64,000 bases of DNA from Paecilomyces variotii (lineage: Eukaryota). The position numbers were made by a program, and so were the translations under genes. Below are positions 9,691-61,882 of this stretch, piece by piece. Position 1 is the first letter of the stretch. Each line of letters starts with the position of its first letter. The notes under the pieces are model-generated. The model searched no databases. It saw only the letters and a program-made list of their open reading frames with translations, and had not been told where the DNA came from. The stretch is from NCBI GenBank assembly GCA_004022145.1, contig RCNU01000004.1; one strand, given 5' to 3'.

Positions 9691-11221
9691 GTTTAATTGC
9701 GCCCCATAAACTCAGGAACCCGCCACAGACTCCACGTCCTTGTCCGCTTTCCGGCGCGCGGAAGCGGTCACAGCCGGAAAGGCCAGCTGCGAACGCCGCA
9801 GTGAGCGTCGCCTCGAGACGGACAGCAATCAGACTCGTGAGGTGCGATTCCTTGCTGTCAGGCTGGCTTCTCTCTCGACCTCCGTCGCTATACCGTATGC
9901 TTGTAGAACCGTGCCGGAGGTCAACAGAAGCGTCATGTATGTGCAGCGAGCGTTTGGCGCGTCTGAAGTTGACGATGGGGAAAGATCAGCCCGTGACAAA
10001 GTATCGGCTTGTCGAACGTCTTCCACCGAACGGACCCGTGGAAACGAGATGTCCAGAACGCGTGGAGTGGAATGCGGCGGTGTTGCTTAATCTCGGAACT
10101 CAGTCCTCTGTCCAGGCACGGCGGAAAAGCCACATGAGGCCGAAGCGCGGCCGTCCTGATTAGATAAGCTACCAGCTTGGGCGCAACAGTGCGACAGAAC
10201 ACCACAACATGGGAAACTGGTTCAGATATTGTGTTGTTCTATATCATTCGGGATTGATGCTTGCCAGGGTGGTCTTATCTTATTGATTCTGTCTACACGG
10301 TTATCGGAAACTGTCAATGTTGTTTCGAGGGGCGGTAACAGCCACGACCACTGGTAGTTATTGCGCCACACGCTAAAACATCCCACGCCCTATCAGAACA
10401 GCCTTAAGACATTATTCATACAAGGGCATGTCCTTTCGAGGTCAGAGTGCTCTATATCATCGCTGTAAACAGATGTTTTGAGACTTGTCCGTCCCAGGGA
10501 TCGTTCCGCATCGGGCCCCATTGCGGGGGCGCGTACCGCGGGACGAGTGTTGACTGTTACCAGAGTTCGTGCAACAAGCGAATCAGTTAAATTGGAGAAA
10601 GAATCATCGTCTGGTCAGTGTGTTGTTCAATTCTCCATTTAACTACGTAATATATCACAGTGTACGGTTTGTATAAATATAAATTGGCTAATTACGAATC
10701 CCATCAATGAAAGCTACGGGGTAATGTGTTAGTATAAAATGCCTCCACATGAGACAGATGCTACAGCTCAAAAGATCCATTCGCTCTCCCATAGTCAGCC
10801 AAGAATCGAGTCAAATAAATCAATTTGGAACGAGTATGGCCATATTATTGAAGCCAGGAGTAACACCTGCGAGTTCCGCTACTAGCAGATGATAACTATG
10901 TTTCGGTGAACTTGCAGACGCAGACTATCTTAGTTCACCCCACTGATCCTGGCAAGAGAAGACTCGGACATTCACTATTCCTTATCCAGAACTCTCATCG
11001 AAACTCGTAGAAAATATATTGATAACATTCTGAGAACTTCAAGCTTCTACCACAGATAACGAGCACACGCGAAGCTAAGCTAGCAAAGTCCGTAACTTGT
11101 AAAACGTTCCGCACAGAACAGGCCAATTCGGGAGTATGTATAGTTAAGACCCTACAACCCGTTTTTGGAATACTACATGTGACATGGTGAATCGATGAGG
11201 GGAAAATGTCGGCAGTTGATT

Positions 11222-11313
11222 GGGCTTGTAACTCAGTGGTAGAGTGCCACATTTGCATGTATCAATACACACAGAAATTGTGGAAGTCGGGGTTTCGACT
11301 ACCCCCAAGTCCA
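11222..11313 (+). tRNA. tRNA-Ala(TGC) with 20-nt intron (11258-11277)
   Basis: Acceptor stem GGGCTTG/CAAGTCC with G3:U70 Ala determinant; D-arm ACTC/GAGT; anticodon stem CCACA/TGTGG with TGC; T-arm GGGGT-TTCGACT-ACCCC; T-run Pol III terminator follows. Confidence 0.93.
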
Positions 11314-14300
11314 ATTTTTTTATCCTGCATATACCTCCCGCCTATCTTGATAAGGCTCTCGTCTGAGATCCTTTGCGTGATATTCAGTGATGATGTTTTT
11401 TTCTTTTTTTTTTTTTTTTTTCGGTGACTTTGAATCTGTAAGCAATATCCCTAGTCTAACCCCTTTCTCCTGGCGTCAGAACAATAGTGGCCGTCGTCTC
11501 CATAACAGACGATGAAGGAATTACAGGTGAGAAATGCAGCTATCCAAGCTTCTAGTACAAGAAGCAGCAGACAAGTAGAATAGTCGACTGGAAGAATAAA
11601 ATTAAACCCAAAAAAACGTATCCTTCCGTTGAGAGCTGAATCTTGGATTGTAAAGTAGCTCTTATTTTTTTTTTTTATATGACCAGAGAACTAAGTACAG
11701 TGTACTTACTATATTCCCTTCCACGATCAGCATTTCGATTATAAACTCGAGATAGGCGAATTTCTCCTGCTTCGGTACAGATTGACTCTGGCGGACGAGA
11801 ACGCTAAATTGAAGGCATTCACGAACAGTGCGCGTCTGCAGATACGATTCTATGTCACTCTATCAGTATCTACCGCGTTTTGGAAATCGGGGTACTTAGA
11901 AGGGGACGAGCGAGAATGACAAGCGTAGAAGTTTCCTTTCGGGGAAATAAATAATAAATAATAGCTAACCTTGTTGTTGAACATATCATTAAGTAATTCG
12001 ATCCAACGATTTCCCGCTCACAAGCAATGTCAAAATTAAAGAGGAATTTTCTTACTAGATCCTATGATGGAAGAAGGGGAATTCCTCCCTACGTACGTAC
12101 GTATGTACATACATAACCGAGAAAAGTAATTATATAGTACAGTACAGTTATCGCAACACCCGCACACCACCACTACCACCAAACACCATAACTAACAATA
12201 TTAAAAAAAAAAAAAAAACAAACAAACCCACTATATACCCAACCTCAACCCCTCCCTCCCTCCGCACTACTCTCCTCTAAAATACAAATCCCCCATTTTC
12301 TGCATGTCAGAACCCCCCTTCCGGCCCTATGATACCCCAGCCTGTAAGAAGCGAACAAGTCATAGTTTATATGCGGTTCCTTTGCTGCCCAACCAAACTG
12401 GCAATCTAATCTTGCAGGAAAGGAACCACAGTGTCGGAATCAAGGTTTTGTTGGTTTATCATTATATCGTTTGATTATTGGAACTGCATGTTAATTTCAG
12501 CCCTGGATGGGGTTATTGGGATCGCGTGAGAACTGTGAATAAAGTGGGGGGGAGGTGTGTGTGTGTTTTTGTTTCTTTCTTGGCTATCTGGAGGGGTTGG
12601 GCTTTTTTTGTTTTTGGATTCTTCTTTTTTGACTTCTTGTCCTTCTCTACCTTGCTCCTCGAACACTTTCTGCCTGAGATACCTGGAATATCGGGTTTGA
12701 ATTTCGTGTTTGCTCTCGAAATGAGGGATTTCGATCATTTTTCTTTTCTTGGTGGACCGGGGGGATCAAGCTATGGCTTCTACTCGATTAGGGGCATTTG
12801 TTCGATGGTCTCTGCCTCCTGCACGTAGTCACTGGCGAAGCGGGCTGTCATTTGGAGATAAAAAAAGGATGCGGAGATGGGCAGAGACCTGTTGCAGGAG
12901 TGAGTACTGGCTGCTATGATTCTGTTTATGGACTACAGATGAATCACTGCTGTCTAGGATGATATATATCCGATATTCAATCCCGCCTGCTTATCCTGCC
13001 CCCGAGAATCGCATCCAGGTCTAGAGACAGCCTCGGTTTTCAAGCTGTCTTCATTCTACTATCCCGGCCAGAGTCCTCATATACTCGCCCCTCAATGATC
13101 AGTGCGTTGGATGCTAAGAGCCATGCGGGATATCCTTCATGAGTATGCCCGAGGGATCTCTCCCTGAGCCTCATCCCGCACGTCCCACACCTGTATAGCG
13201 AGAAACGACGGACCGTGACCTCTACGAAGGCCGAGACAATGTCAGACGTGCGAAGAAAGGGGGAAGGACATACTTGCTGTCGCCACCGCACCAGGACAGA
13301 GTGATCAGCTGGGAAATACGGATCTCGGGCCCGAAGTCCATCACAGTGGAGCCTCGCTGGTATCACGCGCGGCATTATCCAGAGGGATATTTGGACGGAG
13401 CATTTGCGTCCGGGACGGCCACCTCCCATGACTGACGGTACACAGGACGCCGTAACCTAGTATGTCAACGTATACGGAGGTCGACCAAGAGACTTCACAC
13501 TCGGAGTGTCCGATGTAAGAACCAACAGTAGATGAAAGACGCCATCCACTGGCTTTGACAGCTCCGGCTGATAATCAGACGAGGCTGCTTCACCATTTCC
13601 AGGGAAACTGGGTATTATCCTCCCACTTAATCGTCGGAGCCAGGTGATAGCCAGAGCCGAGCACCTAATATACCAACAGGGGCATGTCAAGATGGGACGT
13701 AGATAGAAAGAGTTTTAGGAGTATAAAAAAGAATGATTCGTAGATGCTGTCAACCATCCATGACAGAACCACACATAGTCCACCCGTGAGGCTGCTTATT
13801 GGCGTCCCTTGCGCTCCCGCCTCATTTACCAGCGTATGAGACGTGGAACGGTGCCTGATCAGGCCGTTGAAGGCTTCTTCATCATCCATAGTTCCCGTCC
13901 TATCACGGCGTAGAAAGGGTTCTGTTGATGCTGATTGGGTATTCTCAAATGGGGCCAGTCAACTCAACTCAACCCATCTGGCAACAGCCTTCTTCCCATC
14001 TTCCGGAGCTAAGTCGACCTTGTCCAAGGCCAACGGATCCGATGGCAGTGAGGTCTCGACTCAGGTTAGAGAACTAGGTCCTGCGTTGTTTCTTGATCGA
14101 TTGCTGTCTGGCGTGGAAATCTAACTGCAATTGCCGTGAGGTGTCAATGTAGTAGAGAGCACAAGTCATCAACCTAGCGTACGCGAAGATCTTTGACAAG
14201 AGGTCTAACCGGGGCCGTATCACTCATCCGAACCTCCATAGCCCTACACCTTGCAAGCCACGTCAAGCAGACGTCTCAAGTGACAAGGGGTTGGATAAGC

Positions 14301-36568: not shown

Positions 36569-37664
36569 ATGGCAGCCCCGGGTAATCCTCTTACCCGGCA
36601 GGAAGTCGTTCATCCGCTGCGGAGTTCCTCCAACTCCCCACTATCACTGCATGATGTCGGCCTTTTCAAATCGACGATACTGCCATCATTTACCCTTCAT
36701 TCAGGTCTCTCCGCAACCAGCTATGTTATAGCGCGAGCGACCGATCGCCTTGAGATCAAGGACTGGCTGTGGCCGTTGGCCCCCGTCATCAATGCCTGGT
36801 GGAGCAGTGTCGGTCGCGCTCTCTACTACAGCGATGTCTCTCTCAAGGTTGCTTGGGAATCGCTCTCCTGGTCTGAGAAGTTGCTCCTTGGAGGTGTCAC
36901 CACCTGGGGGCTGAGACTGTTCTACCGCATCGCATCGCGGAGCATCGCCCGCGGCAAAGATGACCCTCGCTATGAACAGGACAAGAAACAGCCCGGTTTC
37001 TGGAACAAGGCCTTCTTCACCCAATTCCTGCCGGAAATACTCTTCCAGACCGCCATAACCCTCCCATTCACTGTTCCGTTCCGCGTTCTGGACCGCCCCG
37101 TTTCTCTGGATGCGGACGTTCTGAATGTACTGCGTGGAATCGCCGTTGGTCTCTTCAGTGCGGGCTTGGCTCTGGAGACATTGGCCGACTCGCAGGTCTC
37201 TTCCTACCGGAAGGTGCATGATGGCCTGTGCCGTGATGGTGTTTGGAGCATCGTGAGACATCCCAAGTAAGTAGTAGTACTTGAATTCCATAAAGAAACT
37301 GTGTCCCGCCATGGAGTACTGAGACAGCCATCACAGCTACCTTGGTGATACTCTCGTTCACCTTTCTTTCCCACTGCTTTGCGCCAGTGGGCCATTCCAC
37401 CCCATCACTGTCGTGGGACCGCTGGCAAACTACGTCTTCCTCCGTTACATGGGCGGCGACAAGGGCACCGAAGAATACCAGGAAAAGCGCTACAAGACCG
37501 AGGACGCACCCAAGTACGTCGAGCTTCAGGAGTACCGCCGCGAGAAGAACAGCTTCTGGCCTTCGTTCTCCGAGCTGAAGAATCCATGGACCTGGAAGAT
37601 CGTGGGCTTCGGTCTTGCTGGTGTCGCTGCCGAGGAGATTGCCCGCGCATTGTACACCCCATAA
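36569..37664 (+). CDS. DUF1295 / steroid 5-alpha-reductase-like membrane protein, 2 exons
   Basis: WGLRL, GKDDPRY, LETLADSQ, GLCRDGVWSIVRHP|NYLGD across a GTAAGT..CAG intron. Confidence 0.88.
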
Positions 37665-37925
37665 ATCAAGGTACATACATACTTCATGCTATTTGAAATA
37701 AGGGATATATGTTATTTTCGTGTATTGTATGTATATACAGTACAACCTCATCAGGGATCTGTGTTGACGAATCTTTAACTGAATTGAGTCGTATATAAAT
37801 TGCTATAAAGAGTCGATAGTCAATAATAATGAAGGGCCAGTACCACACTCTCAGAAATAGCCTCTGTCATTCCAGGACCGTTTTGCCGTGTTTATACCGT
37901 TTCATGAATATAAAAAAATATAAAT

Positions 37926-37971
37926 ACATACGACAGCAGGGATTCGCTGGTGGTCACCCACCCGACTACTA
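37926..37971 (-). pseudogene. 3' half (~46 nt) of a dispersed 5S rRNA gene, 5'-truncated or interrupted
   Basis: Minus strand TAGTAGTCGGGTGGGTGACCACCAGCGAATCCCTGCTGTCGTATGT matches the fungal 5S 3' end and is followed by a T-rich terminator; no 5S 5' half adjacent or found elsewhere in the window. Confidence 0.88.
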
Positions 37972-38807
37972 CTTAACCTGACGCGCCCTCCCTCGCCTAA
38001 TCTCAACATTTTCATCAAGGCATGCTTTGCTGAAATACAGTCTCGGAAATAGTAATGGCTAGACATTTGGCACACGACCGCAATTATATTGAGTGTAATT
38101 ATTGATTATTTATCACTGTAGTCATATCGATTCTTGCAAACTAACGGACAATCTCTTTCTGAAACCGGATTGGAACTAATACAGAGTATAGGATCTCTCT
38201 ATGTACAACAGTGCTTATAGAACACTGCCAGTTCTGAGCTCACGCATTGCTACTCGGCTTGAAACTGTCCCTTGGCTCTGAAAACCTCAGGCTTCGCATC
38301 CTGTTATACTGCCCAGTACGCATAGTAATCGGTGGGGCAAGCACGGCGAGATTCACTCGCATAGTATGAGCACCTGGATTGATCTATCATATATCACCCT
38401 TCTAGACCTCACATGGCACCTGCCCGCGCGGTTGAGCTAGAGGGGAGTCTTCATCTCAATTATGTTGTATAAGAGATCTATTAGGGTTACTTCTTCCACG
38501 CTAATGCAAGACGTATAGTCCTCAAGACAGCATCTGTTCATATGACTAGTTAACGTAATCAACCATAACCCAACCACCGAGCGGGCATATCCTACCTTTC
38601 TTCTCTTACTCACCATTGTATTTCTCCCATCACGACTCACGAAATTCATTTAAACCAACTTCGTAATCTTCAACGCTCATGTAAGACAGTTTCTCATTCT
38701 TACATCTCTCTACTAAAGTGAGTAATACTATTACAAGTCCACATTCAGCTTCCTGCGCTGGCTAATTCTGAAGGCTCAAACGCCTCCCCTAACCGACAAC
38801 GGGCGGT

Positions 38808-40302
38808 ATGAGTGACAAGTCGTGGACTGAGGAGTTCTTCTTTCAATGGCCCCGTCCAGATTGGATAAATGCAGTACATGAGGATTGTCAGAATTTCAGA
38901 CCTTTTCTTCCGCAGGGAAAATGGATGTTGGGAAGGTCAGTGGGTACCAATCTGCGCTCCAGCGAGGATCAGAATCAAGTCCTATGGCTTTTCGTCCAGC
39001 TTCAGCACCAAGAGACATATATACCCAAATATGTCGCCAAAGTAGTAAGTATATAGGAAACAGATCCTTTTCAGGAGATAGCTGATTTCAGATAAAGTTT
39101 TCTGAATACACTGAAAAGGATGCACAACTTCAGCTTCGACGCTATCCACCCCGTATACCTAAGAAGGCTAAGGAGGTAAAAGATGAACTTGACCCGTATA
39201 CGAATGAAGCTCGAGCATACCACTGCATTGAGATGTCGTGCGCAAGCTCAGAAAGGATATATTATCCAGAGTTTCACGGTGTTATCACTGATCTTGGAAT
39301 ATCAAGGTTCACTTATGGCTTTATCAATCCTCGGGCCATTGTTCTCGAATCCATCAGGCCAAAGCTTGCATCACGACGAATTCTAGCGGCCCACAGAGAA
39401 GATAACTGTGAAATTCGGGATCAGCTCAATCATTTAGGACTCCTCAGTGACTTCGAATTGGAATACTATCATAGTCTATTCCATGACCGGATCCGCCGTC
39501 TTTTAGTGTTACACAAACTCGGAATCACACATGGTGATGTACGAGATGATCATTTCAGACTACCAGGGGATTTCTATGATACAGTCTTATATGACTTTTC
39601 TCATTCATATACCTTCTCTTCAGTCATGCCTTACTTGGTCAATTTTCGTCCACCATGTTCTTTAAAGACGATTTCAGACCACGAACAGACCATGGTTAAG
39701 CAACAGATCTATGAACGGTAGGCAACACAAGACAATATCATTGGCAGGAAGCTAAATTTTAACCAGGGCCAAAAACTTAGACTTCCGTAATCACCTTGAA
39801 AAGTCTAGCGGGCTTACTCAAGCAATGCTCCTGGATGCGCTCTTCCAACCACTCAAGGATGAACCATTAGAATTGATAATTCTGCGAGTAAATTTTCGTC
39901 CTGACGGTTAGTTTACCCCTGTTTCATTATTTAGAATATATCTAATACCTCATAGCCTTCTCTATGCCATCGGTGAATTCGGTTTTCCCATTCCTTGAAG
40001 ATATCAGGCCAAAGGATGATAACACCTGGCATATCCGTAGAGGTCGGCTGTTGGAATCCTATGAATCAATTTGGATAAGCTCTACAACAAATGATTCAGG
40101 CCATACTTCTATGAGCATCGTGTCTGACCTTGACTATACCGAAAATGTCACGGGCGCAAAACGCAGATACCTCCTCTGCTTAGTACCGAAGGAGTGGGGA
40201 GTTGAAGATGTCCGCAGTCCACTTATAAGTATCTGTTCGTCCTTGCCGCGCGGTGCTCGTGGCTGCATTAAGACCTGTATCGATTTAGAACACTATAACT
40301 AA
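38808..40302 (+). CDS. Fungal kinase-fold protein (FTA2/PF13095-like); 4 exons, apparently intact
   Basis: YVAKV|F, DPYTNEARAY, PEFHG, RAIVLE, LHKLGITHGDVRDDHF, VLYDFS; introns at 39045-39097, ~39718-39766, ~39907-39955. Confidence 0.72.
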
Positions 40303-40740
40303 TTACATACCATGGTGTCCTTGACACAGAAGCCCGATACACTGTATCAGAGTAGCTTTCTCATTCCATTGCTTGAAACGGCATTCAGGCTGCGTGCTCT
40401 GGTTCCCCAAGCAAAAGGGACAGAATCCAGGTGAGACTAATGTATAACGGAATGTTAATAAATCCACAACGCGGCTGAAGATTTCCAAGATGAGAACAAC
40501 AGTGCTCCTGCCAGTCAGTCTCTCTATGGAACCACTTTACACACAAGTGACACCATTCCAAAAATGCTCGGTTAGTACGGTGATGGGCTCTTCTCCCATT
40601 TCTATTAATTTGCTGGTATGGTGCAGCGTTGAGAGATCTTCTTGTGCATTGCAGGATATGCCTCGAACGACTTTGGATATCAAGTCTGCAAATGTCAGTA
40701 AAAGAATCTGCTAGTAAGATGCTTTTTAACATACCTCATG
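40303..40740 (-). pseudogene. Frameshifted C-terminal Cys/His region of a DUF3435 (Starship captain tyrosine recombinase)-like gene
   Basis: RSRHILQC.RR...WCHLCVKWF...W.EHCCSHL..LQPRCG/LLTFRYTLVSPGFCPFCLG...PECRFKQW; 1-nt frameshift near 40460; residual intron GTATGT..ACTGAC..CAG at ~40733-40686; no N-terminal recombinase domain. Confidence 0.68.
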
Positions 40741-40767
40741 GAAAAGAGACTCACAGAGTATGTCGTA

Positions 40768-41070
40768 ATGGCCCCGACGCGACGCTTACTCAACGGTCGG
40801 GAAATAGCCAACGCTCTCGAGCGCTGTGGATGACCAAAGCAATATCCTTCACGCGCTGGCTTACCATGACGAACTAGTCAGATTTCTCAAGCATTTGTAG
40901 AGAGCAAGAGAAAGACCATTGAGGCTTTAACAGTAGTCCACCTCGTCAGGGTGAAGGAATGGCTACGGGGAAGTTTCCTGTGTCCCCATTGAGATCCATC
41001 AGTCAGGCGAGAATCCAAACAAAAAGTCATCATGCGTTTCCCTCTTCCATTCCGGATCGGCGCGAGGCCT
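40768..41070 (+). pseudogene. Decayed N-terminal fragment of a fungal aminoglycoside-phosphotransferase-like (APH/PKL) gene
   Basis: Across frameshifts: MAPTRRLLNGREI / DDQSNILHALAY / RKTIEALTVVHL..KEWLRGSF.C.PIEI / KVIMRFPLPFRIG, the typical N-lobe of this family; multiple stops and deletions. Confidence 0.65.
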
Positions 41071-41238
41071 TCCGTCCTCTGAATAGGAGACATTCCAAAG
41101 TCGAGTTCGTGATATGCACCTGCTGATGTTTCCTCCACTGATACTCAGGATGCTCAGTCCGCATAAAGGACTTTCAGGCTCAGATAGTACATATAGAGTA
41201 GACTCCAACAACGTGGCTCTGCAGGCTTCGAGTTCTAC

Positions 41239-41240
<2 letters not shown>

Positions 41241-41280
<40 letters not shown>
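41241..41280. repeat. A40 homopolymer
   Basis: Direct read of sequence. Confidence 0.95.
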
Positions 41281-41282
<2 letters not shown>

Positions 41283-41381
41283 TCTGAATATCAACTCTAG
41301 CCGGAGCAGTGGTCTTTGTGGGGTATTAGTTAATGGCATCATCACCACCGTTGCTCAATGTTATCAAAGGAATCAGCAGGA

Positions 41382-42902
41382 TTATAGGTATTTTTCGTAG
41401 CCTACGCTGTCGCTAAAGTGACATTCCTCATAGTCTGGCAATGCCCATTTTCCCATCCATTCACATTTTAGAACATCATGTGCAGTCAACCGCTTCTCTG
41501 GCTCAAAAGATAGCATTGACCGCAACATGTTCATAACAGCAGCTTTCTCCTCTGCATCAAATGCCGGGATTGCAGCCTTCTGCCGTGGGAGTTGGATGTG
41601 CTTTTCAATGCGTTCATCCCAAGACCTCACTTGTCGACCTTGATTTGGTTTTCCGCTTTCATCGAAATACTCGTGTCTCGCCTCCCAATTCTTCTGCCAC
41701 CGTAGAGGTAATTGCCCTAGAGTGTCAACCTGCTCCGCTGTGATGTCGTCCGGAGTGGCTAGTATGTCCTCGAACAAGGGACGCTGACCGAGTATTACCC
41801 ATATAGAACATGCAAGAGTCCAGATGTCAGCTGGGAAGGAAAGACCCAGTTCTGGCTCAAATCGGGCTTCAGGCGGCATGAAGGATAGAGGGGCGTGCGA
41901 GCTATACCGATGCTCTGTTGAGGGTCGGTATGCCTCCCCAAAATCACTAAGTAAGACTCTAGATTCTGAACTCGTGAATTCCTCCGAGGCTTTTCCAAGC
42001 CAGATCGGAAGGACAACACTAGATGGAACGTTAGGCTGGAGGGGTTGACCGTCAAGACGAACAACTGGCTCAGACACAGGCGGACCGTATCTTTCATATA
42101 GCTGCTCAATAGACAGTTGGTCAAAATCGGTCGGGAGACGCAGAAGGATATTGCCGACGTGAAGATCTGATGTAGAGAACTATATTAACGGACGACTCTG
42201 AAATACCTAAGATATGAAGGACTTACCTCCATGAACGACTCCTTTACTATGAATGTAATCGACAGCCAGTACAAGTTGCATAACAAGAGAACGAGCTGTC
42301 TTAGCCTGAAATATACGTCGATACGATCCGTCCTTAGCACCGGAGATACTACACCTTGCTAGGGCTGTCACATAGCAAGAGTGGTTGCCGTTAGGGCCAC
42401 GGAGGACGAATCTGTCTTGAACGGAGGGTATCATTGCCCTTCCAGGGTGGTCAAGTGGGGAAGAGTGATTGAGATAATCGAGGACATCCACCTCTCGAGC
42501 GCTTGACTCTGCAGTTCCAACCTTGACTGCCACATATTTACCAGACTGGCAGTCTTGGCAGAGCCAGGTGGTTGAATAGGTTCCGTAGCCTAGCTTGTGG
42601 GCTACACGGTATCGGGATTGCAGAATATCACCTATCATTATAGGGTGATATCCACCAGGCTGGTACTTTTCGAGTCTCTCGACTTCTTCGACGGGTACGT
42701 ATTCGAAGGGGAGGGGAGCAGAGTCAGCGCTGGATGAGACATTCTTGAAAGCCATGCTCGATCTGAATGCACGCCGCCCAACAACAGAACGTCTCCAAGA
42801 GCAAGGATAGCAAAGTGACAAGGACAGCGTCTGATGGAGCTGAGATGTGAAGCCTTGTCGATGAGCCCAGAGCAAGTTTTGTAACCTGATCGGAAAAGCC
42901 AT
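41382..42902 (-). CDS. SRPK/Sky1-like serine/threonine kinase; exons 42902-42227 and 42166-41382 (start codon uncertain)
   Basis: YQPGGYHP, HKLGYGTYSTTWL, VAVKV, VVHG|DLHVGNILL, LSDFGE, PPEARF, ADIWTLAC. Confidence 0.9.
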
Positions 42903-43335
42903 TACCAAGGAATTAGATTCAGCAAATGATCAAGCAGCAGTCCTAATAAATACACCCACCACAAAATCAGACACAGAAGCAGCAAAGTTCCCAGCTGCCA
43001 GCTTGTTGCAAGGTCTTTGACTTGGTAGGAGATATCTCCCAGTGTCTCACTTAACACGTGAACTTAAGTAAACCATCACAGCGACCATGTCCCAACGGTT
43101 ACAGTAAAGCAGTGGCTAGGGGATGGACTAGCAAAATACTTGGTTTGGCCAATCGTGATAAAATGCCTGGGGCAAATCAAAACATGCGTGTTGCAAGTAA
43201 ATACAGGCATCTCTATAATTTCGAGCAACGGTCTTTAAAACCCTGTACATGGAGGTCTGCCAGCAGTGCAGCACATACAGATGCTCATAGTTCATGCAGC
43301 CTTTCAATCGCACGGTTTCCCCGAAGTCACCCTAT

Positions 43336-43995
43336 CTACTCGAAATAGCGCTGATCCGGCACAACGCCAAGCGCTATCGTGATGCGATTAGAATGATTAA
43401 ACCATGCAATAGTCTCGATTGCCTCGAGAATCTCCTCATCCTGAAAGCCGATGTGCCTTAGGTGGTCTAGATCTTTAGCCGATATCTCTCGCGGCGCCTG
43501 CGTCAGTCGCTCAGACAAATCCGCCAGCGCATGCTCTCGCTCGTTCAATTCGACCAGGTGATGGTCTGCCGCGATGCGCTTTGCACGAACCCGGTCGCCG
43601 CCTATCGCGGCGCTGAGGCCAATTGTGTGATTTGCGGTGCAGAGACCACATCGATTCGTCGCAGAGGTCACCACGGCAATAATCTCGCGCTCCCGGAGAG
43701 GAAGCTTTGCGTTCGGATTCGTGAATAAATCCTCGTAGTAAGTGACGAACCGGCGGGCTGTGTCTGGGTTCAGGGAGAAAGCGCGCGTCCAGTTATCGCC
43801 GTGGTGTTGAGCGATCAGCTTTCGCGTCTCCGGGGATAGTTCTGACTCGTCAGGAATTCGAAGGCGCGAGATGTTGCTGATACTTCGGGTTGTTGTTCTC
43901 GAAAGGAGTGCAGTGTTGATTCTGGGAGCGATAGATGAGAGTCGGGATGGTCGCGAATGGAGAAGCATCCGAGCGAGGCTCTGCGGCGATACCAT
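43336..43995 (-). CDS. AhpD/carboxymuconolactone-decarboxylase-family peroxidase-related protein with predicted mitochondrial presequence, intronless
   Basis: EIIAVVTSATNRCGLCTANH (AhpD CxxC core); C-terminal EILEAIETIAWFNHSNRI; first ~45 aa R/S-rich with no acidic residues. Confidence 0.85.
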   Translation of the reverse strand: MVSPQSLARMLLHSRPSRLSSIAPRINTALLSRTTTRSISNISRLRIPDESELSPETRKLIAQHHGDNWTRAFSLNPDTARRFVTYYEDLFTNPNAKLPLREREIIAVVTSATNRCGLCTANHTIGLSAAIGGDRVRAKRIAADHHLVELNEREHALADLSERLTQAPREISAKDLDHLRHIGFQDEEILEAIETIAWFNHSNRITIALGVVPDQRYFE

Positions 43996-57770: not shown

Positions 57771-58763
57771 TCTATCTTCGTGTCTCTTCCCAGCTCTGAG
57801 CAGACATGGAGAGCAGCTCGGAATTAACTCCGCGATGCAAAGATAATCAGCGCCAGATTATCTTAGATGCATCTTTCTCACAAGCTCGATGCGGCTGGTT
57901 CGACGAGCTTGCCTTGACTTATCCTCGGATGGCATGCCTTGACAGCTCGAGCCACGCTAGACGGAGTTAAGTAACGCATGCTTTAACTCCGCCAGTACCC
58001 GGTCCACAAGGACACCATCAATGTTCCTTGAGTTTCATGCTTGCTTGCGACAGGATAACTCAACCTGTTGTGAAGTCACTGATACATATATCTCAATATT
58101 TTTCGTGTATCTCATAGCTGCTAAGCAAGACAAAGAGAGCGTCGGATTATCCTGCCCTGGCCCAGCACTGTCAAGAGCACATTATCCACAGGTACAGTGT
58201 AGTCTTATTGCGCTCATAGAAATGTATTGAGAATATATTTCTGGGGGCTCTGAAAGTAAGTCTATTCCACGGTCTAGAACCTTGCTCAATGAAGTCTACG
58301 TTGCAACCCATAAAGACGTACTTGAACGTAATACATATACTGGACATCAACTTCATCACCAACATCCCGAGAGAACGGTAGTATGGAAGCTTATCGTTTA
58401 TATGAAAACACGAGATAAGAATAATTCTAACAGTCTACCTCTTGGTCGGACGTTCTGCCCAGCTGATAATAGCCACAGTTTCAATAGTGGCGTCTGACCG
58501 ATCTTCGGTGGCTTAATGATGTCACAGGCGAAGCAATATCATTTGTGGAACTCATGTTCTGCACAATCACAATCCTGCCTAGCAGACTCGAAGGCGATAT
58601 ACTCCAGACAATCTATTTGTTGCGCGAACGGTTACAAATACGACACTTCGGTTTCATACTGACATCACCGAAGCATGAAGGGACTTTTTATCAATACCTA
58701 AGCCTCAACCGCCATAGTTTTTTTTAATTAATCAGAATATGTCCATAATCGAGTTATCATACC

Positions 58764-59473
58764 ATGAGTGGTTACGAACTGCCATCAGTAGGTGATCTTA
58801 AGCGTGCCGCAGCAGCCGGCCAGCGTATAACACCGGAAGATGTGTCTGTGATCGCGCAAGCCGAGAGCGAACTTACAGGTACCGGACCTGTTAAGGGTGG
58901 ACCAGCAGGTAATATTATCGTCCTCTTTATCTCATCGAGATATACCTGTGTTAATTATCCAATGTCCTGATTTCTGGCAGCTACGGCCCATAGTTTAGCT
59001 TCTCGGCAGATGAACTTCGATACGAAACTTGATGAGTTATCGAGGAAGCCGCAAAGTCACATCACACAGTTGGATGCGAAAGAAATCCAATCTACAGAGG
59101 TAGAATCTTCAAGATGTAGCAACATATACGTGGATTAATGGAGCTGATTAACCCTGCTAGGCTCGCGCGTTTAATGCACCGCCTGGACCAGGCTCGGTGT
59201 CTGCTCAGGTTCGCTCCATAGCCGATAGAAATGAAGCCCTGGGACTGCCACCAGTCATGGACCCTGGTGCTGTATATATCACGAAGGATGAGGCCAGTGA
59301 AGCGCAAAGTGCTGAGTCGAGGCTATGGGGTGGGCAAGTCCCTAGAGGAAGTTATGCAGCTCTGATGCAGGTAAGTCTGGGTCACTAATGATATATATGT
59401 TCCTGACTAAGACTCCGATGCAATAAAGAGTGCTGCAGATAAAATTGAGCATGTCAAACACTGCGGAGACTGA
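58764..59473 (+). CDS. SMP (seed maturation protein/LEA)-repeat stress protein, 4 exons
   Basis: Three repeats of IT.ED...AQ.AE....G...G..AA..QS; three canonical introns. Confidence 0.82.
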
Positions 59474-61320
59474 ATACAAAAGAGAGAAGAAATGCATTGA
59501 CTGGTCCAGACGGAGACTAGGTTACTATCTAACCTTCTATGTGAATACTGCTCTACAGACTATACATTTGAATAGCGAAAAGCCCTTTTACTAGGCTCAA
59601 GGATGTGAGATAGGCACTGTATCAATTCTAGTGATCTCGTAGGTTCTATTCTAAGATCAGGATGATTATATAACAGATCGTCTTCACGCAGCGTCTGCAT
59701 CGACATACCAAAGTTCTATAATGTTCTATAATTTGCTAAACAAGCCACCACGAATAGCGATATAATAGATCATTACGCGCGTTTTCCTGCATGCTCTAAC
59801 ATCCCTCAAAACTAGCAATCGCTAGCTCCAACATTCATCTCCTGGACAGGAAAATCTGAAGCTACCTACCCAGGTAAATCCGTATACTAGTTCTTCCCAG
59901 TAGAGACGTGTTGCAATTAACTACCTAGGTAGCCTTGTAGCACATCCGGTAGACCGACAGCATCTCAATAAAAAAGAACTAAACAGCAAGACTCGATCGA
60001 CTCCCCACATTGTAGGGCGATAGAGGTGGAGCGTGATCTCTCAGGTTCCATAGACCGGGACCGGGCGAGACTATGGTAAGTTGTGAAATATGAATTATTA
60101 TTGTTATTATTATTATTATACTGTATAATGCAGTACTATACTGTATAGCGCCTTCGCTGCACGGACATCCAGCTAAGCGTGCGATGTGTCCTATCTATCT
60201 ACCTAGGTATCTAACCATCTAGACCGAATTCTGAACCACTAGTTAAGTAGTCCTGAGCAAATAAACTTCGGCGGGGTTAGGGGATATGCAATGATTTGGA
60301 ATCATGATCTGCAAAGAAGATTAACCTTCCGTAGGTCCCGACAGCTTGGTTCTCCACTGGATATGTATCTAGAGAGTTTGTTGGTTATCATTATTTTATC
60401 TAGTTACTCTTCTTGAGATATGTCGGTCAGCTTCTCCGGCAGCAACCCCAGTCCCCCCCTCCAAAGCTACTGAGAGGATCTGCCAGCAAGGGGGAAGGAA
60501 TCTCAGCCACACGCGTCATTTCGCATTGGGCTTAGGATAACACACCCCAATAAAAAAAAGGGTATTCTCTGAGCGAGTTTCAATGGTTCCAAAGATTGCT
60601 TTCTGTCGTGGGGTGAGCCGCGGTCAATAATAGTGGTGTGGTCAATTGCCTATTTTTCTCAGAATTCACCATCCAAAAGGGTGGAATAATAACGGGGTCT
60701 GGTTTGGCCTTCTAGGCGTAGACTTTTTGGCAAAGTGCATCGCATCGTATCGCATCGCAACGCAACGTCAGACAATAATGATGGCAGGGATATGATTTGG
60801 AATAATGAATGCGATACTTAGCGCTGATGCTCAATTTCGAATCGCAATTCTCATGGCCAGTGCGCGCGATTAACCAAAAGATCTCAATGCGTTAACTAGT
60901 TAGTTACCTACCTAGGTACCTAGTTATCATCACTCTCCCCCACCAGACAATGACAAATCGTCCTAGATAGTTAGTTCAGGGTCGAATCCCCCCTCCCTTC
61001 CCCATCTTCTTGTAGGTTAATAACAATAATCGAGTGGAGAATCAGATTGATAGCTAGCTAGTTAATAATAATTGTCAGATTTTGGGGGCCATAACACTTA
61101 GATACTTACGGCATCACGATTGTGAGACACAACAAGTTCGGCAATATCACCCAAACCCCGCTTGACCATGAACGAGAGAGGTTTAAATACCCTCCCAAAG
61201 ACCTTCAACCAAGGTCCCCAAGATCAAGGACCTTGAAAGAATCAAAACGCAAAAAATATCCCTAACTAGTCTATTACATAACACTACATACCATAACTAC
61301 TTAGTTACACATCGCCCACC

Positions 61321-61882
61321 ATGCCTCTCACTGGCCACTGCCTCTGCAAGGCCGTCACCTACTCAATCGACATCGACAAGCCACTTGCCGTTGCTTATGA
61401 CCACTGCGACGATTGCCAGCGTCAGAGCGGCTCCACCTACTGTATGTACAGTGCAGTGCAGTGCAACCTTCACATATGATCCATTCACCAGGAACGATGA
61501 CTGACTTAATTAAAAGCGCTGGTCGCCGTGGTTCCGAAGGATAAACTCACCATCAAGGGTCCTACGAAGAGCTGGGCTGGGCTAGGAAGCTCAGGGAAGG
61601 CCGTGCATCGTGTGTTTTGTTCTGAATGTGGTTCGCCAATTGCCCATGATCCGGATGCTGCGCCTGAGATTATCGCTATCAAGGCTGGTACCTTTGACAC
61701 GGAGATTAAGAAGGCTTTGCAGCCGGTATGTGTGCCCACTTAAAAATAAAAAGAAAATGAAGATGAAAAAAACAGAAGAGTTAACTGAGATGATCTTGCA
61801 GGACACTGAAATCTGGACTGTGAGCAAGCTGCCTTTTTGCAAGGAGAGCTTGGCGCACCCGTTCGAGCATATGCCGCAATAA
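61321..61882 (+). CDS. GFA/CENP-V (Mss4-like) zinc-binding protein, 3 exons
   Basis: MPLTGHCLCKAV, DHCDDCQRQSGS, RVFCSECGSP. Confidence 0.9.

Follow-up and report, generated by a model that had tools for sequence, protein, structure and literature searches.

A 5S rRNA gene fragment in Paecilomyces variotii as the probable decayed 3' junction of a 5S-targeting Starship

A broken 5S rRNA gene lies in a 64,000-nt stretch of the genome of the food-spoilage mould Paecilomyces variotii (assembly GCA_004022145.1, contig RCNU01000004.1; the whole stretch is referred to here as the window), and non-5S DNA begins where the gene stops, with a captain-like relic and a kinase-like gene in its first 3.3 kb. 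Starships are giant elements that shuttle large blocks of genes inside fungal species and from one species to another, and 5S genes are among their favoured landing sites. An earlier, model-generated annotation of this DNA (the original prediction) had proposed that the break marks the end of a derelict Starship. The features of the locus, with their positions in the window, are as follows.

37912-37924, minus strand: T-runs resembling an RNA polymerase III (Pol III) terminator, T3 and then T7 (37912-37918 on the plus strand), read from the sequence directly 3' of the 5S end.
37925-37981, minus strand: 3' part of a 5S rRNA gene, unambiguous over 37925-37972, from Rfam RF00001 and Aspergillus fumigatus 5S strings.
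37973-37981, minus strand: CAGGTTAAG, 5S-like with four extra bases; the junction falls inside it.
37983-37997, minus strand: GC-rich subterminal motif GGCGAGGGAGGGCGC, a candidate 3' terminal inverted repeat (TIR).
37998-38807, no strand: about 0.8 kb of non-coding DNA from the candidate element end to the presumed cargo gene, with open reading frames (ORFs) that have no Pfam match at E<=10.
38808-40302, plus strand: four-exon kinase-like gene, a look-alike of the FTA2/APH clan and presumed cargo, from tblastn with the homologue P0130 and a splice model.
38808-39044, 39098-39717, 39767-39906 and 39956-40299, followed by the stop codon, plus strand: exons of the kinase-like gene.
40336-40735, minus strand: frameshifted fragment matching the C-terminal zinc-finger tail of DUF3435 proteins, with eight homologues and a tblastn alignment to P0007.
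40736-41241, no strand: about 0.5 kb with no Pfam, Rfam 5S or captain match, a candidate zone for the breakpoint of the deletion that would have taken away the rest of the captain.
41242-41280, plus strand: pure A39 run, a possible right limit of the remnant or a mere homopolymer.

The 5S fragment scores poorly against the family model. When the whole window was scanned with Rfam, 5S_rRNA stayed below its gathering score and the sole match was a tRNA at 11222-11313. A scan of 601 nt around the fragment gave 5S_rRNA at 14.4 bits (E 4.7), and the stretch cut at the break and searched in the truncated mode of Infernal gave 17.9 bits (E 0.097) over model positions 64-120, flagged as 5'-truncated; both values compare with a gathering score of 38 for a full-length 5S of about 120 nt (RF00001). 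By Rfam alone the assignment is weak, and direct comparison with A. fumigatus 5S is the stronger evidence. Intact A. fumigatus 5S sequence is printed at empty insertion sites in the supplement of PMC12153272, for example as cacgccggctggttagtagttgggtgggtgaccacc and caccagcgaatcccagc. In a by-eye alignment covering GTAGT to CCCTGC, the minus strand of the window is identical to one such string at 20 of 21 bases (gtagt.gggtgggtgaccacc) and to a second at 16 of 17 (caccagcgaatccc.gc). Taken together, the locus is a fragment of a 5S gene that comprises model positions 64-120 only. The truncated Rfam match and the A. fumigatus identity bear out the original call of a minus-strand 3' remnant of 5S, and the terminator named in the same call is also present: the fragment ends in the expected GTCGTATGT, and the T3 and T7 runs follow. 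T-runs terminate Pol III, and eukaryotic 5S genes carry an internal promoter. Although the terminator has been kept, little of that promoter region is left, and the stump is therefore expected to be silent.

The original prediction put the break at 37972, as CAGGTTAAG|TAGTAGT. That the gene breaks here is clear, but the exact position does not hold, as 5S-like bases continue to 37980. This continuation, CAGGTTA, carries four extra bases relative to A. fumigatus 5S: GGTTA is common to the two, and the window has four more bases between GGTTA and GTAGT. The CAGG at 37977-37980 can pair with a CCTG further 3'; the A. fumigatus bases at these positions are CTGG/CCAG, so that the two changes compensate each other. 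Beyond CAGG, the upstream sequence (GGCGAGGGAGGGCGCGT) is not 5S. On this alignment the junction falls within 37972-37981, at about nt 64-77 of 5S, rather than cleanly at 37972, and the four extra bases, within 37,970-37,976, may be mutational, may distinguish the two species or may belong to a hybrid region formed by crossover. Homology thus stops inside the 5S coding sequence, at about model position 64-77, as expected for an element that targets 5S. The portion of the PMC12153272 supplement that we draw on records at least four distinct A. fumigatus empty-site strings spanning ggttagtagttggg, the same stretch of 5S in which the window breaks.

A GC-rich motif lies at the junction, where the window read on the 5S strand runs ...GGCGAGGGAGGGCGCGTCAGGTTAAGTAGTAGTCGGGTGGG. 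In the starfish tables of the NAR supplement, two A. fumigatus elements assigned to fam06, aspfum11_s01256 and aspfum13_s01290, are listed with the TIR-down ga[a/g]aaagcggcgagggcgcta and the TIR-up tgttccctcgccgctttgcc; the captains of both are annotated 'zinc finger; DUF3435', and one of the two has the repeat acaacagc, the reverse complement of a 5S 3'-end string. The window motif and the fam06 TIR-down have GGCGAGGG and GAGGGCGC in common, in the orientation expected for a 3' end, so that the GGCGAGGG..GGGCGC arrangement at the junction resembles the listed TIRs of the two elements. Each shared 8-mer occurs five times in the window, counting both strands, against 1.6-1.9 expected. In a gapped local alignment of the TIR 21-mer with the 60 nt inside the junction, 101 of 8526 window segments score as high (p about 0.01). 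We regard the motif as suggestive of a Starship terminal repeat and not as proof of one.

The relic at 40336-40735 is the only DUF3435-related sequence in the 64 kb; 2.3 kb separate it from the break, and it shares its strand with the 5S piece. Of 105 candidates, eight are homologous to it at E 1.6e-28 to 2.4e-22, and PF11917/DUF3435 is present in three of the eight. With tblastn it aligns to residues 397-493 of a DUF3435 protein, P0007 (621 aa), and in a second frame to residues 475-515, and the change of frame places a frameshift near 40,403-40,458. The DUF3435 domain of P0007 occupies residues 2-317. As the matched residues, 397-515, lie outside it, the relic is the zinc-finger tail only. 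The frame of the relic closes at 40303, where it meets the stop codon of the kinase-like gene back-to-back. Upstream of the relic, nothing of the catalytic part of a captain was found even at E<=50, and ORFs in the relic region gave no DUF3435 Pfam match at E<=10. Pfam scans of the window took 96 of the 174 ORFs of at least 90 aa and, in a second round, 49 of another 67 with a minimum length of 70 aa, the 18 left out being those that overlap the OPT and MFS genes. A Starship is expected to carry a DUF3435 captain first at its 5' end; the window scans returned no catalytic domain, so the locus can be at most a remnant and not a functional Starship. The captain-like relic that had been called here is real, as its eight homologues, three of them with PF11917, attest, but it is only a non-catalytic C-terminal tail without the recombinase domain.

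Between the relic and the candidate element end we see one intact gene, which is presumed cargo. The homologue P0130 (442 aa) aligns colinearly by tblastn to 38808-40302 in four pieces, and the resulting model has 447 codons, an ATG start, three GT-AG introns and no internal stop, with 383 residues identical. On this model 38808-40302 reads as one intact gene, which replaces the APH-like pseudogene and separate FTA2-like gene of the original prediction. The family is small, with 77 representative clusters at E<=0.001 and 28 at E<=1e-30 among 1.84 billion proteins. Exon 2 gives a sub-threshold match to Pfam FTA2 (PF13095; E 0.0087), and FTA2 also appears in four of the 17 relatives scanned at 16.6-19.8 bits, a range that starts at 16.2 with the window exon included and compares with a gathering score of 30.2; the E-values of these FTA2 matches run from 0.003 to 0.009. 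APH (PF01636) has no Pfam match in the gene or in its scanned relatives, and a PDB sequence search with P0130 gave no match at E<=1. ESM-Atlas look-alikes of P0130 are kinase-clan clusters, in some of which FTA2 (73-100%) or APH (27-28%) is annotated among the members. The gene therefore looks kinase-like while falling below the membership threshold of both the FTA2 and the APH families. Its GC content at third codon positions (GC3) is 0.39, and FTA2-annotated genes occur at least eight times in the portions of the Starship cargo tables consulted. This gene is the only part of the remnant that looks functional. A homologue of 39092-39718, P0131 (657 aa), continues for about 390 further residues after the kinase-like domain, with no Pfam family at E<=0.01.

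The 5S 5' half was reported missing in the original prediction, and motif and Rfam searches of the 64-kb window agree. A whole-window Rfam scan found no second 5S piece at E<=1, which is weak evidence by itself because the 3' half is also missed by such a scan. Within 40.6-41.5 kb, Rfam at E<=10 gave no 5S and only a chance match to a long non-coding RNA. Two motifs from the A. fumigatus 5S 5' half, a 19-mer (<=3 mismatches) and a 14-mer (<=2 mismatches), are absent from the window, and a 5S 5'-end motif has 17 matches against 11.8 expected, which is not above chance. The window holds no plus-strand copy of the TIR-like motif; a window-wide repeat search returned only low-complexity pairs and no TIR partner, and the indices of repeat-induced point mutation give no such signature in the window. 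One inverted pair was considered as a set of element ends and rejected. Its arms, at 11378-11421 (T-run plus TGATATTCAG) and 41250-41293 (A39 plus CTGAATATCA), are 44 nt long, 84% complementary and 29.8 kb apart, with no homology past the arms; core genes lie between them, which is why they are not taken as element ends, and the pairing is probably a coincidence. The arm at 11.38 kb sits just 3' of the tRNA gene, for which the full coordinates are 11221-11314 (plus strand), with an intron of about 22 nt and 55.8 bits in Rfam; ARAGORN named no anticodon.

Our preferred reading, to which we give a probability of about 0.7, is that the break is the 3' junction of a 5S-targeting Starship that is now immobile. 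It is supported by several independent lines of evidence, each individually modest. The premise of the original prediction, that Starships integrate into 5S genes, agrees with the literature, where 23% of 222 curated Starship insertion sites are reported in 5S rDNA, at no fewer than five target positions (PMC11162782). In the proposed course of events, a dispersed 5S gene would have lain tail-to-tail with a DUF1295 gene, about 260 bp downstream of it, and would have been split by site-specific integration of the element, whose sense strand would be the minus strand of the window. On that strand the order would be a 5'-truncated captain scrap, the antisense kinase-like cargo, then some 0.8 kb without coding sequence, the repeat-like motif and lastly the 3' part of 5S, terminator included. 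Deletions might then have shrunk the element to about 3.3 kb, ending before a kinase gene at 41.4 kb. We infer tyrosine-recombinase integration as the cause, an element end at about 37,982, and the extent of the element. The relic, the motif and the 5S piece all lie on the minus strand, as expected of an element that integrated in the same sense as the 5S gene. The orientation originally proposed, the same as that of the captain relic 2.3 kb away, fits this arrangement, and the putative 3' terminus moves from 37,972 to somewhere in 37972-37981. The window has no recombinase domain, no 5' repeat and no 5S 5' half, and lacking these the element could not move.

The flanks differ on the two sides of the break. 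Three genes near it are as follows.

36569-37664, plus strand: DUF1295/steroid 5-alpha-reductase-like core gene, exons 36569-37267 and about 37329-37661 plus the stop codon, its 3' end facing the 5S fragment.
41385-42929, minus strand: divergent protein kinase in two exons, with Pkinase at E 1e-9 and 2e-7, directly right of the A39 run.
43339-43995, minus strand: intronless CMD/AhpD-type 'peroxidase-related' gene, 5.4 kb from the break.

To the left of 37.7 kb, Pfam identifies core genes: a GT90 glycosyltransferase, kinesin-3, the CCAAT-factor HapB, Ars2/SERRATE and the DUF1295 gene. For the last of these (PF06966, E 1.5e-18), 413 of 1162 candidates are homologues at E<=1e-20, and they are spread over Eurotiales and beyond; the best, 'DTO166G4_3942 [Paecilomyces variotii]', is identical at 224/233 and 108/110 residues over the two exons by tblastn, which makes the host a Paecilomyces near that strain, though probably a different one. 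In 2-kb bins, GC content falls from 0.509 on the left of the break to 0.471 on its right (Mann-Whitney p 0.008), and the OPT, MFS and CMD genes have a GC3 like that of the left-hand core genes. A/T runs like the A39 run are found elsewhere in the window as well. The kinase at 41385-42929 has a low GC3 of 0.46-0.48; comparable kinase genes are often listed as A. fumigatus Starship cargo in the portions of the NAR supplement tables consulted. The CMD gene has 28 homologues at E<=1e-10 (among 895 candidates), none of them named P. variotii. Its best identity is 95%, followed by P. lecythidis at 80%, Rasamsonia at 63%, Caballeronia at 58%, an Agrobacterium plasmid at 52% and Fusarium at about 50%. 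It is a candidate for bacterial-to-fungal transfer and for an accessory gene of the P. variotii complex.

Several observations weigh against a Starship junction, or at least against its simplest form. Right of 40.7 kb, a sense-inserted element should carry about the first 390 captain codons, its 5' repeat and, beyond that, the 5' half of 5S, and the window contains none of them there; a kinase gene fills 41.4-42.9 kb. No second end and no partner direct repeat were found in the window, where a search with the junction repeat returned only the junction itself, and right of the break the ORFs in the Pfam scans yielded no DUF3723, NLR, patatin, ferric reductase or second DUF3435. The ungapped 16-mer core of the TIR has no match at the junction with <=3 mismatches; the similarity holds only with a gap of 4 bases; in the A. 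fumigatus elements 16-38 nt separate the TIR from the called direct repeat, against 0-9 nt here; and none of six 9-mers from the window's element end occurs in the portion of the NAR supplement consulted. The 5S-like bases extend 8-9 nt past 37972, with a 4-base insertion that fits no model. The relic lacks the recombinase domain, and five of its eight relatives have no DUF3435 annotation, which makes a stand-alone zinc-finger gene a conceivable source. That missing domain, together with the single visible junction, the weak TIR-like similarity and the generally accessory look of the zone to the right, would also suit an ordinary deletion or rearrangement in an accessory region that truncated the 5S gene, the DUF3435-related scrap then being coincidental debris. 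We think this unlikely, as the one DUF3435-related sequence in 64 kb sits less than 3 kb from the break and in the expected orientation, the break falls in the stretch of 5S with recorded A. fumigatus insertion sites (in the PMC12153272 strings), and a repeat-like motif stands exactly at the junction. Far less probable still is that the 5S-like stretch was carried inside mobile or duplicated DNA, as a direct-repeat copy or a pseudogene fragment, and is not a broken resident gene. CAGGTTA and the four extra nucleotides at the junction could be such a carried-over copy, but the exact 3' end and the T-run terminator are kept and the flanking DNA is core, 260 bp from the DUF1295 gene, all of which fits a resident 5S gene.

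Within the Starship reading, the extent of the element divides the two remaining accounts, and neither reaches even odds. Non-Starship causes take up the rest of the probability. A deletion stump of about 3.3 kb is the somewhat likelier of the two. Its rival, which we hold only tentatively, is an undescribed Starship of the P. variotii complex that targets 5S and measures at least 26 kb, with a body running from about 37,982 to past 64,000. The captain scrap at 40.3-40.7 kb would then be the leftover of a nested or older element, and the two accounts would differ in extent alone. As cargo it would carry, besides the bacterial-like CMD/AhpD-type gene and the transporters OPT and MFS, two kinase-like genes and two regulators of the Zn-cluster type. 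Beyond 64,000, the 5S 5' half (minus strand), a CCCTCGCC-type repeat and a DUF3435 captain would be expected. Such a size would be in keeping with the 16-403 kb given for Paecilomyces Starships (10.1101/2025.02.28.640899), and the A. fumigatus tables consulted commonly list genes for kinases, APH, transporters and transcription factors as cargo. GC stays lower over all of the DNA to the right, the CMD gene, at 5.4 kb from the break, has the patchy distribution of an accessory gene, and the window contains neither a 5' end nor the 5S 5' half. Against these points, captains are normally 5', and a same-strand scrap 2.3 kb from the 3' end is more simply taken as the element's own captain after deletions; moreover, the ORFs in the Pfam scans include no Starship hallmark gene in 41-64 kb, and the GC3 of the OPT, MFS and CMD genes is that of the core genes on the left. 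If a large element were nonetheless present, split 5S halves would be landmarks for such elements in Thermoascaceae. Under the preferred reading, whatever the element's extent, the boundary between core chromosome and accessory DNA, in a mould known for active Starships, lies at the break, and half a 5S gene beside a captain scrap would offer a cheap, sequence-only marker of a past Starship landing.

Starships are well documented in this genus. Across 79 Paecilomyces genomes, 33 haplotypes in six families, Enterprise and Galactica among them, have been reported (10.1101/2025.02.28.640899). Hephaestus and Pegasus, both from Paecilomyces variotii, are Starships of the same genus as the putative element described here, but their targets are reported in that source as TTAC(N7)A and, for Pegasus, the 10-bp palindrome TACCTAGGTA, not 5S. 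The Pegasus target is found exactly three times within 1 kb of intergenic DNA elsewhere in the window, at 59922-59931, 60200-60209 and 60909-60918 (0.04 expected), with a near-copy, ctacctacccaggta, at 59863. The cluster could represent landing pads or a regulatory motif. On the plus strand, at 58749-59385 and 61510-61740, it is flanked by two ORFs with weak 'seed maturation protein' (SMP) matches and an ORF with a glutathione-dependent formaldehyde-activating (GFA) domain.

Among elements that do target 5S, Voyager of Macrophomina phaseolina is likewise a giant element, is described as always residing in a 5S gene and inactivates that copy (10.1101/2021.12.13.472469). It differs in belonging to another fungal class, in inserting 20 bp from the 5S start, against about nt 64-77 here, and in having intact, active copies. 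Osiris, an Enterprise-family element, is reported to fragment 5S copies in A. fumigatus (10.1101/2024.06.28.601215); its site, TTAAGCCAC, lies about 15-20 nt further 5' in 5S, and its TIR, ttgaacgcggtcaa, is a different one. Lamia h1, a Galactica-family element of A. fumigatus, is not stated in the sources consulted to have its site inside a 5S gene; the NAR supplement lists for it the direct repeat cagtagtc and the TIR-down caaaaagcggcggcgc. At the corresponding place, the junction, the window has TAGTAGTC, which differs from this 8-bp repeat by one base, and the TIR-down is of the same GC-rich motif class. The only captain of P. variotii CBS 101075 also groups with the Galactica family. The recorded empty site of Lamia h1 is only 8 bp, however, and the window motif is closer to the fam06 repeat.

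The nearest likeness is to the Enterprise family and fam06 of A. fumigatus, which insert in dispersed 5S genes and leave two half-genes, as proposed here; Aspergillus Enterprise-family elements are stated in PMC11162782 to target mostly 5S rDNA, and we infer that fam06 is Enterprise. The two fam06 elements have a DUF3435 captain annotated with a zinc finger, to be compared with the zinc-finger tail in the window, and a GC-rich TIR with GGCGAGGG and GGGCGC, as at the junction; A. fumigatus 5S-targeting Starships carry cargo genes of kinase and APH type, and the gene next to the break is kinase-like. They differ in the wider spacing between TIR and repeat given above, and in that the repeat acaacagc would fall at the far 3' end of 5S. 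The known mechanism of Starships is unchanged by this locus, which would be one more decayed example of a kind already well described, and would show that one kinase-like cargo gene may survive undamaged when the element itself is dead. Compared with the A. fumigatus elements, the window keeps one end, a captain scrap and one cargo gene.

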